Shown: positions 3,262 to 53,013, counted from the first letter of the whole stretch. The stretch: 63,919 bases of DNA, filler included, from Reclinomonas americana ATCC 50394 (GCA_048213135.1; 3 parts of 2 records of this genome joined end to end with filler, not necessarily neighbours in it); one strand, 5' to 3'. Notes: generated by a model from the letters alone, not told the origin. Made by a program: numbers and translations.

Positions 3262-6200
3262 ATGCCCGCGTGGAAAAGTAGACAGAATGCCTGTGCTGTG
3301 TGGCTGCTGGCGTCATTAGTCGTCACTGCGTGTGTTCTCGTGCAGGTAAGTTGAACACACAAACAGCACACTCACACAGGAGGATTAACACCAGCAGAGA
3401 GATGTTTCTTGTCCAGTTTTTGTCTCTCTCTCTCTCTCNNNNNNNNNNNNNNNNNNNNNNNNNNNNNNNNNNNNNNNNNNNNNNNNNNNNNNNNNNNNNN
3501 NNNNNNNNNNNNNNNNNNNNNNNNNNNNNNNNNNNNNNTCTCTCTCTCTCTCTCTCTCTCTCTCTCTCTCTCTCTCTCTCTCTCTCTCTCTCTCTCTCTC
3601 TCTCTCTCTCTCTCTCTCTCTCTCTCTCTCTCTCTCTCTCTCTCTCTCTCTCTCTCTCTCTCTCTCTCTCTCTCTCTCTCTCTCTCTCTCTCTCTTTGCC
3701 ATGCTGAAGCATTTTGCACATTCTGGCTGCATGCATGCATGTTCAGTTCGAATCCTCCTTCCTGCTCAGTCACCCTCGCTTTCCTCTCCGCAGCCATCGC
3801 ATGCCGCCTGCAGCGACTGGGCCTTCAACACATTTCTTGTTGGCCTCACCTACAACCAGCCTGTGCGCGTGTCGAGCACCACGGCGGCGCCACTGACGGC
3901 GCCCATGATTCGCGCAGCGCGGTGAGTGAAGGACGAGGGAGGGAGATGGACAGGAAGCAATGAAGGGAGTAGAGGCAGCAAATGACTGAGAGCCTCACCG
4001 AGAGTGTGTGGGTGAGAGAGCGTGGCACCGAGAGTGAGGAGGCGAGAGTGAGAGATTGAGAGACAGAGGGTAGTACAGTTGGGATGGACAGGGTGGAGAG
4101 ACGCACAGACAGTGAGCGAGCACGAGAGACACGCGCACCAATGAGAGAGAGAGAGAGAGGCATAGGAAGTGAGTGAACATGAGAGGCAGAGAGAGAGAGA
4201 GAGAGAGAGAGAGAGAGAGAGAGAGAGAGAGAGAGAGAGAGAGGAGGAGAGAGAGNNNNNNNNNNNNNNNNNNNNGCTCTCTCTCTCTCTCTCTCTCTCT
4301 CTCTCTCTCTCTCTCTCTCTTTTCTCTCCTGTCTTCTTTCTTCTCTGTTTCCTTTCCCTTCATTTTTCGTTTCTTCCTCCCCTGTGCTCAACCTCTTTCC
4401 TTCTCCTTTCCCCCGTCCCCTTGCCTTCCTCTCTCACAGGGACTCTCCACATCCGGACTTGTCTCCGTGTGCATCTCGTATATGTCGTCGCCAGGCTACA
4501 ACTACATCAAAGGTACGCCCACCGTCGAGCTGTCTCGCGTGAGTTGTCGCGTGCTCACTGTGTCACCCACTGCAGCCTCCTGTCAATCAATTGTGCGTCC
4601 GGGTCCCAGCGAGCATATTGTTGTGTCAGTGAGCGAACGAGAAAACGCGGCACACTGATAGCACAAGAGAGAGATCCGAGACAAAGCACACCACGTTGCG
4701 AGATCAGTGAGACGAAGAGGCAACAAGCCAAAGTGGGTGGATGGCAGAAGGCAGAAAGAGAGATAGGATGTGAATCATAAGAGTGATGACTGCCAGTGAG
4801 GAAATTTGATTAGGCTGCTTGGCAGAGCCTTAGAGAATGCACAACCAGACCTATTGCGAGGCAAGTTGATCTCACGCCCTCCACTAATCTCCCCTTGCTG
4901 CAGCGTGTGACCACGTGCAGTAGCATAAAGTACAGCTGGACCCCGGAGTCGATCAACGCCAACGATGCGAACGCTCTCGTTACGTTGGTCGGGGGAGGCT
5001 TGTCAGCTGCCGCCATCCGCACAGTGCGATTCGAACCCGGTCAGCTGTGCACGCCGACCACTGCCGGTGCGACATTTGGCACCGTGACCGGCGGCACACG
5101 CACCAACATCGCCGCCGATACGGTGCAAGTCCGAGTCGGTGGCTCGGTGCGTCGTTTACGTCATCGCCACTGCCAGCCTTCTCCTGTCGTCGCTCACCAT
5201 CACACTTCGTCCTCTCCTCGTGTTCGTTCAGGGCCTACTTGCCGGCATGTACGCCGTGTGCTTGGATTTTACCACGAATCCTGCATCCGGTGCATTTGTC
5301 AAGGTCGCGCAGAATGGAAACTGCGATGCGACGTTGGTGAGGGGAGGGAGAGCTCACTGCCTCCGTGCATTCTCTTGTGGTGTACTCACGGGCATCTTTC
5401 TCGACAGGTTGTCGGTACAGTGAATCGGTTGCTGCCATCAGGGGCCATGTCGATCACGAATGTCGTGCTGAACACCAGCACGGGATCGGCGGCCGTGGCG
5501 GTCAGCGGAGTCTCAGTCGCAATCACGTTTCGCTGCACCGACGCAAGCACCACAAGCGTCGACATTTACGTGGTGTATGCAGCCAATACCACCTGTGATC
5601 AGTCGTCGGTGGTGGCGTCGGGCGTCGCTGTCGTGTGGTGCGTTGCTGCCACAGTGCGCCCTTGTCTATGTGTGGAATATGGCGCGCACGCTGACTTTCT
5701 GTCGGCGGCAGCAACGGCGTCGCAACCAATACTGTCAATGTAACTCCGCCGGCAGCCGCCATTGGGTCGGCCACACGCTACGAGGTTCGCGACGCTACCT
5801 GGCGCAGCGGTGGCCTTCGAATTGTATAGTTGCGTACTTGGTCGAAGTGGACCGAGCATCTTTACTCTCTTGCTGGTATCTCTCTCTCTCTCTCTCTCTC
5901 TCTCTCGCAATTCTCCCCTCGTTCCTCATTCTTTCATTTTCTCTCACGTGTATTTTTCACAGGTTCAATTTTGTTTCTCTCTCGACTCTTCTCTCGCTCG
6001 ACGCTCTTCTCTCGCTCGACGCTCTTCTCTCGCTCGACGCTCTTCTCTCGCTCGACGCTCTTCTCTCGCTCGACGCTCTTCTCTCGCTCGACGCTCTTCT
6101 CTCGCTCGACGCTCTTCTCTCGCTCGACGCTCTTCTCTCGCTCGACGCTCGACGCTCTTCTCTCGCTCGACGCTCTTCTCTCGCTCGACGCTCGACGCTC

Positions 6201-51300: not shown

Positions 51301-53013
51301 GGCTGTTGGTGGCTGGTCCGCAGCAGACGACGCCGCCGGGAGAGAAGCCGGTGTTGCGGGCGCCGGCGGCGCTCTGCTGTGCGTAGTCGATGCGACCGCG
51401 GGAGGCGCCGAAGCAGCTGGTGGCGGTGGCTCCGCGAGCACTGCGTCGAGGGAGAGGGGAGGAAAGGGGGGTGGGTAAGGGAGAAGAGGGGGGAAAGGGG
51501 GAAGAGGGGGAAGAGGGGGGGTTAGAAAGAAAAAGAGTGAGAGAGAGTGAGAGAGAGAATGAGAAAGAGAGACTGAGAGTGTGAGAGAGACTGAGAGAGA
51601 AAGAGAGAGATTGAGAAATAGAGAGACTGAGAGAGAGAGGGAGAGACTGAGAGAGAGAGGGAGAGAGTGAGTGAGGGAGAGAGTGAGTGAGGGAGAGACT
51701 GCGAGAGAGAGACTGAGAGACATAGAGAGAGCAGAGAGAGACAGAGAGAAAGAGACTGAGAGAGTCTGAAGACTGAGAGAGAGAGAGAGACAGAGAGAGA
51801 GACAGAGAGAGAGACTGAGAGAGAGACTGAGAGAGAGAAAGAGTGAGACTGAGAGCAGAGAGACTGAGAGAGACTGAGAGACTGAGAGAGGCTGAGAGAG
51901 AGAGAGAGACTGTGAGAGAGACTGAGACAGAATGGGAGAAGGAGAGAGACTCTGAGAGAGAGACTGAGACAGAGAGACTGAGAGAGACTGAGAGAATGAG
52001 ACTGAGAGAGAGACTGAGACAGAGATTGTGAGAGAGAGATTGAAAGACAAAGAGACTCTGAGAGACTGAGAGACTGAGAGAGAGAATGAGAAGGACTGAG
52101 AAGGACTGAGAGAGACTGAGAGAGACAGAGTGAGAGAGAGAGAGAGAGAGCCAGAGAGTGAGACTGAGAATGAGACTGAGACTGAGAATGAGACTGAGAG
52201 CGAGAGAGACTGAGAGTGACCGAGAGATAAGAAAGAGAGAGAGAGAGAGAGGTGTTGACAGAGAACGAGATAGAGACTGAGAAAGAAACTGAGAAAGAGA
52301 CTGAGAAAGAGACTGTGAAAGAGACTGAGGAAGAGACTGAGAAAGAGACTGAGGAAGAGACTGAGGAAGAGACTGAGGAAGAGACTGAGGAAGAGACTGA
52401 GAAAGAGAAAAGAGAGAGACTGAGAGAGAAGAGAGAGAGAGCGGAGGAAAGACTTCGAACGCAGAGGACATGCTCACACTCTCACACTCTTGCATCTATG
52501 AATTGCCAAAAGAGTATCGATGAAAAAGATGGCCCACGTCTCCCTCACTTTCTCTCTCGTCCTCACTCTCTCTCTCTCTATCAGCCTTGCATTCTATCCT
52601 CTGTGATGCACGAGCAAAAGGCAAGGCGAATATTATCAGGATGAAGCGACAGGACGGGAGGGAGGGCAAGGGAGAACAACGATTCTGCACAGCTACTCAC
52701 GTGCATTGCGCTCCAATGCCCGCCACATCATTCGAGCCGCCGGCGGCTGCAGCAGAAAAGTCGAGTTGCTTGCAGCTTCCATTGTCACCGGCGGCGCGGT
52801 ATGCGTAACATCCGGCCACACCCACGGCCTCGGCGTAGTCGACCAGGCCGAGGGCGTTGGGTGAAATGTCGGCGAATGTGCACACCGAGTAGTTGGTGGC
52901 GCACAGGGCGGCTGCGGTGGAGTCCAAGATGGCGGTCCAGGTGCCGGAGCAGGTGCCGACGGCGAGGGTGGCGCTGGCCCAGTAGATGGTTGGTTGGCTG
53001 CCGCTGCTGCACA
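18397..53013 (-). CDS. Gene B: giant type-I membrane protein (Cys-rich head, ~70 cadherin-like repeats, ~6 IPT-like units, stalk, TM helix, ~400 aa tail); first exon missing; spans one linker and one gap
   Basis: Exons splice in frame from VCSSGSQPTIYW (53013) through repeats such as NVNPTAPTLSSSTYTPPLALNGVIGTLASTDVNTGQTLTYTITGGTNQASFNISGTSLRSNVAGLTGNNLQVIVQVSDGAGGTASTTFTINE. TM helix WLWAVIAASAVLLIGLHVIWFIY followed by CWRRRRH. Stop TAG at 18397-18399. Confidence 0.85.
19859..19928 (-). other. Gene B transmembrane helix
   Basis: WLWAVIAASAVLLIGLHVIWFIY followed by CWRRRR and preceded by a Gly/Ser linker. Confidence 0.85.
21750..24272 (-). other. About six IPT/TIG-like beta-sandwich units of gene B
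   Basis: Recurrent P...(T/Q)V.G.(N/H)L...F.(L/I)....C...(Y/L).(V/L/M)C pattern: FTVVGTNLAS, ITVQGNRLNK, VQLVGAHLDA, LVVPGLFLNA, VTISGINLTV, LTVMGVNLNA. The fold assignment is inference. Confidence 0.5.
24354..32168 (-). repeat. Membrane-proximal, diverged cadherin-like repeats of gene B (~20), many split by internal introns
   Basis: Units of the form NxPPT...Y.PP...VG.L...D.N...F.Y.IVGG....F.I.G..L....G..G..L.V.V..TD..G, with variable intron positions. Confidence 0.85.
29520..29619. other. Artificial assembly linker N44-TTAATTAATTAA-N44
   Basis: A six-frame stop sequence centred in an exactly 100-bp spacer. Confidence 0.95.
32227..49790 (-). repeat. Tandem array of ~49 one-domain exons (~276-282 nt) flanked by phase-1 introns
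   Basis: Typical junctions are ...GAA G|GT and YAG|(C/T)N AAY. Example exon 43252-42974 is 279 nt. Period is ~335-355 bp. Confidence 0.9.
48200..48720. repeat. GA-rich low-complexity expansion inside one gene B intron (48086-48829)
   Basis: Recurrent GAGAGTGAAGAAGGAAG-like units. Confidence 0.85.
51320..53013 (-). other. Cys-rich N-terminal head domain of gene B (two exons)
   Basis: CSGTW...AAALCATNYSVCT...GCYAYRAA...SC...QCT|ARGATATSC...GGVVCC, directly before the first cadherin repeat. Confidence 0.6.
51535..52440. repeat. GAGACT/(GA)n compound microsatellite in a gene B intron
   Basis: Degenerate GAGACTGAGA and GAGACTGAGGAA units. Confidence 0.9.

Follow-up and report, generated by a model that had tools for sequence, protein, structure and literature searches.

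The window, i.e., the whole stretch of DNA analysed here (63,919 nucleotides, filler included), comes from Reclinomonas americana ATCC 50394 (GCA_048213135.1) and consists of three parts of two records of this genome joined end to end. It contains two neighbouring genes, referred to as A and B, that appear to encode a pair of single-pass receptors with cadherin-like repeats and, on the membrane side, a common module that could be assigned to no family. The DNA has a eukaryotic character, with short, broken open reading frames (ORFs) and exons joined through GT-AG introns, mostly of 60–80 nt; 14 runs of N and long GA/CT microsatellites are also present. Gene A lies on the + strand (3262–18367) and gene B on the − strand, from 19185 to at least 53014. 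Their stop codons (TAA at 18365–18367 in A, 19185–19187 in B) leave the 3′ ends facing each other with 817 bp in between. The exons were found with our own exon finder, which is trustworthy in the regular repeat array of B and noisy elsewhere, while the models of the membrane-proximal stalk were spliced by hand from the DNA (Table 1).

Convergent genes with a common membrane-proximal region

A first-pass annotation of this DNA had proposed that A and B are paralogues whose stalk segments align, and had quoted ten peptides from the two proteins. All ten were recovered in the six-frame translation, those of A on the + strand between 16228 and 17068 and those of B on the − strand between 20959 and 20130. 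In both frames the translation goes on with a linker rich in Gly and Ser, two cysteines and a tryptophan arranged as C-x4/5-C-x-W, and a hydrophobic helix, as had also been stated, and then with several basic residues in a row. A strong hydrophobic segment, with R/K residues after it, occurs once in each protein, and its best 19-residue Kyte-Doolittle mean is 2.52 in A and 2.46 in B. The proposed alignment held up as well: BLASTP of the hand-spliced C-terminal regions gave one collinear alignment (60.8 bits, E 5e-14, the E-value being calculated for the pairwise search space of 249,471) that extends from before the SVCDG motif through the transmembrane (TM) helix, with 104 identical residues in 415 columns (25%) and 23% of gaps.

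As a control that does not depend on the splicing, the local alignment scores of single exon pairs were compared with those of 300 composition-preserving shuffles per pair. No shuffle reached the real score for a1a/b1 (z 8.8), a1b/b2 (z 8.3), a3/b4 (z 7.9) or a4/b4 (z 11.7, a value inflated by the Gly/Ser and TM composition), and only 2 of the 300 did for a2/b3 (z 3.5). By the same measure, the similarity was not significant for the exons upstream of the stalk (a0/b0, z 1.1) or for any of the four pairs of cytoplasmic-tail exons (z −0.7 to 1.1). Three introns, all of them in phase 1, are found at equivalent positions of the alignment (after ..FFVIA / ..FTVA, ..CNRP / ..TCN and ..SDLQ / ..SLLY, in A and B, respectively), the donor of b3 in one of these three having been chosen with knowledge of the structure of A. 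The first stalk segment (S1) of B contains an extra phase-1 intron of 90 nt (20746–20835, −) that is open in frame. At the same point exon a1 of A has a candidate of ~66 nt (16370–16435), in frame, stop-free and with GT...AG ends, for which the automatic parse put a different intron (16385–16438). The donor sites of both genes are weak and unusual (GTTGCG, GTGCGT and GTCTGT are the commonest), with a preference for G at +5 and for T at +6 and few A residues at +3/+4, and the acceptors are mostly TGCAG.

Taken together, the stop positions, the BLASTP alignment and the exon-pair shuffles show that A and B are convergent (tail-to-tail) genes and that they are paralogues from the membrane-proximal region through the linker to the TM helix. 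A third copy of the stalk was not found in the window.

Cadherin-like repeats and the neighbouring units

Along gene B the exon finder gave many consecutive exons of 279 nt, each coding for a single repeat and bordered by phase-1 introns; 52 exons of 88–100 codons are open and phase-compatible. A hidden Markov model (HMM) built from 49 of the B repeat exons matched B in full length 62 times and in part 16 times, i.e., about 71 repeats once the half matches are paired. On the + strand of A the same HMM gave 8 matches at iE<1e-3, the best of them (4.9e-18) at 14213–14461. The description of the two genes as a short and a long member of a pair was thus confirmed, with at least 8 detectable repeats in A versus ~71 in B. 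Two further matches were found on the − strand inside gene A (8357–8428 and 8500–8721), in a sequence with the internal Cys pair that is typical of the repeats of this gene and located between two N gaps, which is probably a small scaffold piece in flipped orientation.

Three lines of evidence, homology, a profile search of the PDB and the predicted fold, indicate that the repeats are cadherin-fold domains, as the first-pass annotation had suggested. The Pfam family Cadherin (PF00028) was present in the precomputed domain lists of all 42 database relatives of the B repeat at E<=0.001 (best 2e-48, 37% identity). A profile of 18 diverse repeats, compared with the PDB sequences, gave 15 matches at E<=1, every one of them a cadherin, with a modest best E of 0.006. 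The AlphaFold2 (AF2) model made from the same 18-repeat alignment (pLDDT 93, pTM 0.83) has seven strands, and cadherins or protocadherins filled 40 of the 41 listed rows of its Foldseek search, with probabilities of 0.99–1.00, TMq of 0.47–0.69 and E-values of 0.0056–0.027, none at E<=0.001. Neighbours of the repeat in the structure and profile searches include PCDH15, CDH23, CELSR1 and classical cadherins. Among the pieces submitted to Pfam (29 + 11 + 14 + 7 + 6), only Big_9 (PF17963) exceeded its cut-off, with 29.9–35.1 bits against a gathering score of 23.6 on three multi-repeat ORFs; two other ORFs stayed below it (17.3 and 20.6 bits), and the rest was sub-threshold Cadherin and noise.

The closest sequence relatives found for the B repeat were bacterial adhesins with cadherin-domain or Big_9 repeats. 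Wherever a source was named it was bacterial (Bacteroidia, Bacteroidota, Planctomycetota, Chitinophaga and others), at 24–38% identity. Unlike these adhesins, A and B are eukaryotic genes: their introns are of the GT-AG type, each repeat has an exon of its own, and the proteins have a TM helix and a cytoplasmic tail. As judged from the Pfam lists of these bacterial relatives, the stalk, the units described below and the tails have no counterpart among them. It has to be kept in mind that the protein libraries used gave no self-match to queries from the window, so that relatives from eukaryotes had no chance of showing up.

The most regular part of the B array was delimited by Tandem Repeats Finder (TRF) as 23.8 copies of a 348-nt period, made of an exon plus its intron. 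Among 19 of these units identity was 79% in the exons and 60% in the introns, and the mismatch fractions at codon positions 1, 2 and 3 were 0.13, 0.10 and 0.48. Recent copying can be rejected, given that third positions differ at 48%. Since the mismatches concentrate at third codon positions, the near-identical peptides of the array reflect strong purifying selection on each repeat, and not recent copying or an assembly error; the array is old and constrained. Between 24355 and 49789 (−) nearly every repeat occupies one exon with phase-1 introns of ~70 nt on either side, a domain-per-exon layout of the kind that permits exon shuffling, and two of the ~118-aa units of B are likewise one exon each. 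Four divergent B repeats (25768–25929, 29925–30082, 31214–31438 and 31680–31934, all −) have two adjacent cysteines (a vicinal pair) within the motif D-A-N-C-C-Q-S, located where other repeats have D-x-N-T-G-Q-T.

Upstream of the B repeats, the DNA up to a Cys-rich exon is GA/CT-rich, of low complexity and interrupted by N runs, and the Cys-rich exon itself (52700–53014) had no Pfam match at E<=10. Tracts of low complexity with a purine/pyrimidine skew are located in gene B at 48112–48765 and 50220–52500 (−) and are apparently large introns; their GC skew reaches 0.58 and one of them contains a 374-nt N run.

Both genes also code for units that are not cadherin repeats. The first-pass annotation had called them IPT-like and had placed them before the repeats in A and after them in B. 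Non-cadherin, beta-rich units were indeed found at both places, ~118 aa long in the two B units that lie on single exons, but a common identity of the A and B units was not supported. The two N-terminal units of A are clearly related to each other (z 17.9, reached by none of 300 shuffles), whereas A-versus-B pairs had z-scores of at most 3.7, and an HMM of five B units found no A unit among 1339 six-frame pieces. The five clear B units are rows of this HMM and match it by construction; the sixth (24018–24362) is an independent match at E 0.001. As for the IPT label, Pfam gave no match on the 6 unit pieces at E<=10, to TIG (PF01833) or to any other family, nor did another scan at E<=0.01. The AF2 model of one B unit was of low confidence (pLDDT 57), and its best Foldseek match, among generic sandwiches, had an E of 0.91; two rows of the 7-row alignment behind it were A units, not demonstrably homologous, that may have hurt the model. 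Only the Atlas language-model search pointed to the label, since TIG-bearing eukaryotic clusters made up 21 of the 30 matches of a B unit (score 0.91, 194 shared features), with a recognition value of 1562 that is below the level of 2300. The likeness to receptors with IPT/TIG domains (of the plexin, Met or PKHD1 type) goes no further than these clusters, and “IPT-like” is only a lead.

Table 1. Features of genes A and B, with positions counted from the first nucleotide of the window.
Feature	Position	Strand	Basis or remark
A start codon and hydrophobic, signal-peptide-like N-terminus	3262–3351	+	translation by eye, no predictor
A N-terminal non-cadherin units	4949–7041	+	own exon finder
A unit 1, exons	4949–5146, 5232–5289	+	own exon finder
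A unit 2, exons	6621–6878, 6955–7041	+	own exon finder
A cadherin-like repeats, with six N runs; many with an internal Cys pair	7045–14789	+	repeat HMM
A-type repeat in opposite orientation, with an N gap on either side	8129–8711	−	repeat HMM, translation
A exon a0, upstream of the shared stalk	15975–16122	+	DNA reading
A exon a1: Cys-bracketed stalk segment S1 (SVCDG ... F.CN)	16217–16534	+	DNA reading, shuffle scores
A exons a2 (16600–16806) and a3 (16980–17154): stalk segment S2	16600–17154	+	DNA reading, shuffle scores
A exon a4: Gly/Ser linker, Cys pair with Trp, TM helix (~17353–17424), basic stop-transfer residues	17220–17529	+	
A cytoplasmic tail (~210 residues), exons 17781–18030 and 18099–18367, with stop	17781–18367	+	DNA reading
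Intergenic DNA between the two 3′ ends	18368–19184	.	stop codon positions
B cytoplasmic tail, exons 19750–19607 and 19537–19185, with stop	19185–19750	−	last-exon model uncertain
B exons b3 (20549–20304) and b4 (20209–19811): S2, Gly/Ser linker, Cys pair with Trp, TM helix (~19928–19854), RRRR	19811–20549	−	DNA reading, shuffle scores
B exons b0 (21193–21038), b1 (20994–20836) and b2 (20745–20662): S1 and the segment before it	20662–21193	−	
B membrane-side units, five clear and one weak	21875–24362	−	HMM
B cadherin-like repeats (~71), most of them on a single 279-nt exon between phase-1 introns	24355–51319	−	
Most regular stretch of the B array (23.8 copies of a 348-nt unit, exon plus intron)	39847–48086	−	TRF
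B upstream Cys-rich exon, 105 aa	52700–53014	−	translation

The stalk in sequence libraries

The claim that the shared module is unrecognised also stood, as there was no match for it in Pfam, in the PDB sequences or in a library of 1.84 billion proteins. All of these searches were carried out with single exons or with profiles of exons. The 14 stalk and tail exons, taken singly, had no meaningful Pfam match at E<=10, and on 13 of them there was no Pfam family at all apart from TM or chance matches. The remaining one, b2, matched weakly the N-terminal part of Big_7 (E 0.039, below the cut-off) and, to the eye, resembles the start of an Ig-like domain, which is a lead only. In the four tail exons the sole Pfam row at E<=10 was DUF6879 on the last exon of A (E 0.086), which is at chance level, and the cadherin (catenin-binding) cytoplasmic domain was absent at that threshold. 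Exons a2 and b3 show by eye a pattern F-D-G-S...D...W that may resemble the one of PKD-type domains, again as a lead only; a PKD match for the second segment (S2) was not obtained in Pfam at E<=10 with a2, a3, b3 and b4 searched singly, the segment being split over two exons.

Three stalk profiles compared with the PDB sequences gave nothing informative. The only cadherin row, to extracellular cadherin (EC) repeats of CDH23, had an E of 1 and is at chance level, and at the sequence level these profiles did not match the membrane-adjacent domain of PCDH15 and CDH23. In the exhaustive HMM search of the 1.84 billion representatives the S1 profile (a1, b1 and b2) had a single match, the ENA protein P0043 (4352 aa), which has Kelch and Ig-like repeats; its score adds up 16 weak stretches, and it was rejected as a relative of the stalk. 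A word-indexed search with exon a1 found nothing among proteins of 185–2000 aa, and the Atlas search of the same exon stayed below the recognition level, with unrelated bacterial clusters. The possibility that the stalk is a decayed repeat or a degenerate B unit was rejected as well (hmmsearch <=0.5 bits, hhalign probabilities of 0.1% and 0.5%), and a seven-row unit HMM including the two A units did not match it. The stalk would therefore be a distinct, unrecognised module within reach of the libraries used, from which this organism and its kin appear to be missing.

The main alternative concerns the nature of this module, which could be made up of common beta-sandwich domains of the Ig-like, IPT or PKD-like kind, in two or three copies so divergent that sequence comparison no longer detects them. 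We give this explanation only slightly less than an even chance. In the stalk translations hydrophobic residues take turns with polar ones, as in beta strands, and the weak Big_7 match of b2, the possible PKD-like pattern of a2/b3 and the Ig-like units repeated in P0043 all point in the same direction. Against this stand the Pfam result for 13 of the 14 exons, the uninformative PDB searches, the lack of resemblance to the repeat and unit profiles of the window itself and the Atlas value of a1, even if all these counter-tests compare sequences and use exons one by one.

Interpretation of the pair

Overall, it seems probable that A and B are diverged paralogues of an intron-rich eukaryote, coding for type I single-pass surface proteins that carry a cadherin-fold rod on a shared stalk. 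For both proteins we infer the topology, the disulphide, the length and the function: a type I topology is suggested by the hydrophobic N-terminus of A and by the single strong hydrophobic segment followed by R/K residues in each. The ectodomain would be a rod of cadherin-fold repeats, with more of them perhaps hidden in the N gaps of A. An EC domain has a usual length of ~4.5 nm, and at that length per repeat the rod of B would measure ~0.3 micrometre. Both rods would be joined to the membrane via the same module of ~300 residues, in which S1 would be a small segment between two conserved cysteines (SVCDG ... F.CN), probably forming a disulphide, and S2 a second, beta-rich segment with the terminal motif R..V.D.AN...LVG.SG, followed by the Gly/Ser-rich tether, the juxtamembrane C-x4/5-C-x-W, the TM helix and the basic residues. 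The pair most likely originated by a local inverted duplication, and later the outer parts and the tails would have diverged and the B array would have been built by tandem duplication of exon-plus-intron units. The likeliest role of the rods would be cell-surface adhesion, or the capture of matrix or particles, with the shared module acting as stalk and anchor and the unrelated tails leading to different intracellular connections.

Several observations weigh against this picture. For gene B no true 5′ end, start codon or signal peptide was found. Gene A has eight N runs and one piece in the opposite orientation, and its treatment as one gene between 3262 and 18367 is an assumption. The splice choices outside the regular array were made by hand, and the automatic parse differed from them in places. 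The role in adhesion or capture, which we consider likely, is drawn by analogy. Regarding the repeats, Pfam Cadherin remained under its gathering score on all pieces tried (best 21.7 bits versus 28.8, and 13.7–16.3 bits on other pieces). XEX, DRE and DXNDN are the inter-domain calcium-binding motifs of classical EC domains, and the 18-repeat consensus has acidic residues only at T-D, at S-D-G and at a terminal E, with none at the positions of XEX and DRE, as mapped by eye and not by structural alignment. Calcium-stiffened, cadherin-style binding is doubtful because the consensus lacks acidic residues at these ligand positions, and the safest wording for the repeats is cadherin-fold, probably not classical calcium-dependent.

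The closest known systems in architecture are the giant atypical cadherins of animals, i.e., Fat, Dachsous, CDH23 and PCDH15, that are also single-pass and have long arrays of EC-fold domains and a non-EC region at the membrane side. Proteins of this type have roughly 27–34 repeats, so that B with ~71 has over twice as many. The repeats of A and B differ from theirs in staying under the Pfam Cadherin cut-off and in lacking, as mapped by eye, most of the calcium-ligand motifs in their consensus, and the tails in having no cadherin cytoplasmic domain in Pfam. Comparable proteins outside animals are those of choanoflagellates and other protists in which cadherin repeats are combined with a TM helix and with further, shuffled domains.

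An origin of the repeat rods by horizontal transfer of a bacterial adhesin, to which eukaryotic introns, a TM anchor and tails were added later, appears unlikely. It would account for the bacterial names among the relatives of the B repeat and for the fact that Big_9, a “bacterial Ig” family, was the sole one above its cut-off. However, the bacterial bias may be a sampling effect of libraries in which eukaryotic relatives could not appear, and the phase-1 introns at every repeat exon and the far diverged third positions imply that any transfer would be ancient.

We find it very unlikely that the short and the long protein form a dedicated heterophilic or heterodimeric pair, as the first-pass annotation had considered by analogy with Fat/Dachsous or CDH23/PCDH15; their association would be mediated by the stalk or the rod tips. 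The genes are adjacent and convergent, the rods are strongly unequal in length, the juxtamembrane Cys pair is kept in both and could form intermolecular disulphides, and the repeat matches PCDH15 and CDH23 in the fold and profile searches, although this reflects the shared EC fold only. However, adjacency is to be expected because local duplication ordinarily leaves adjacent diverged paralogues, and the distal ends, where the binding sites of the animal pairs are located, are not comparable, the N-terminal units of A and the Cys-rich exon of B showing no detectable relation. We would give as little credence, or a trace less, to the idea of a lineage-specific, membrane-adjacent module (S1, S2, the juxtamembrane Cys pair and the TM helix) with which a cadherin-fold B filament of ~0.3 micrometre and a short A filament would be assembled in cis to form a single surface structure, i.e., a tip-link-like apparatus of two cadherins invented independently outside animals. 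Finally, the 14 N runs, the long GA/CT microsatellites and the apparently flipped piece might make one think of an assembly or annotation artefact or of a decaying pseudogene, an explanation of the long array that can practically be dismissed given the 52 open, phase-compatible exons, the excess of substitutions at third codon positions and the differences between the copies (mean nucleotide identity of 79%), which are therefore not collapsed or duplicated reads.

The locus bears on a wider question, since non-animal cadherin-repeat receptors are informative about how adhesion machinery was assembled via domain shuffling. It combines a layout in which each domain has its own exon and the introns are uniformly of phase 1 with ~71 repeats in an array under strong purifying selection and a membrane-side module, without family assignment, common to two neighbouring genes. 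Should many members of the source lineage turn out to have this module, it would define a new family of receptors; should it consist of divergent Ig-like domains, A and B would be an ordinary lineage-specific pair of giant adhesins.

Rfam and tRNA scans of the window gave no matches. Outside the two genes, an unbroken ORF of 635 codons (61543–63450, +) contains TPR_10/TPR_12 repeats within its final 140 residues, and the relatives found for it were bacterial TPR proteins only, with 26–34% identity in alignments that cover between a quarter and a third of the query.

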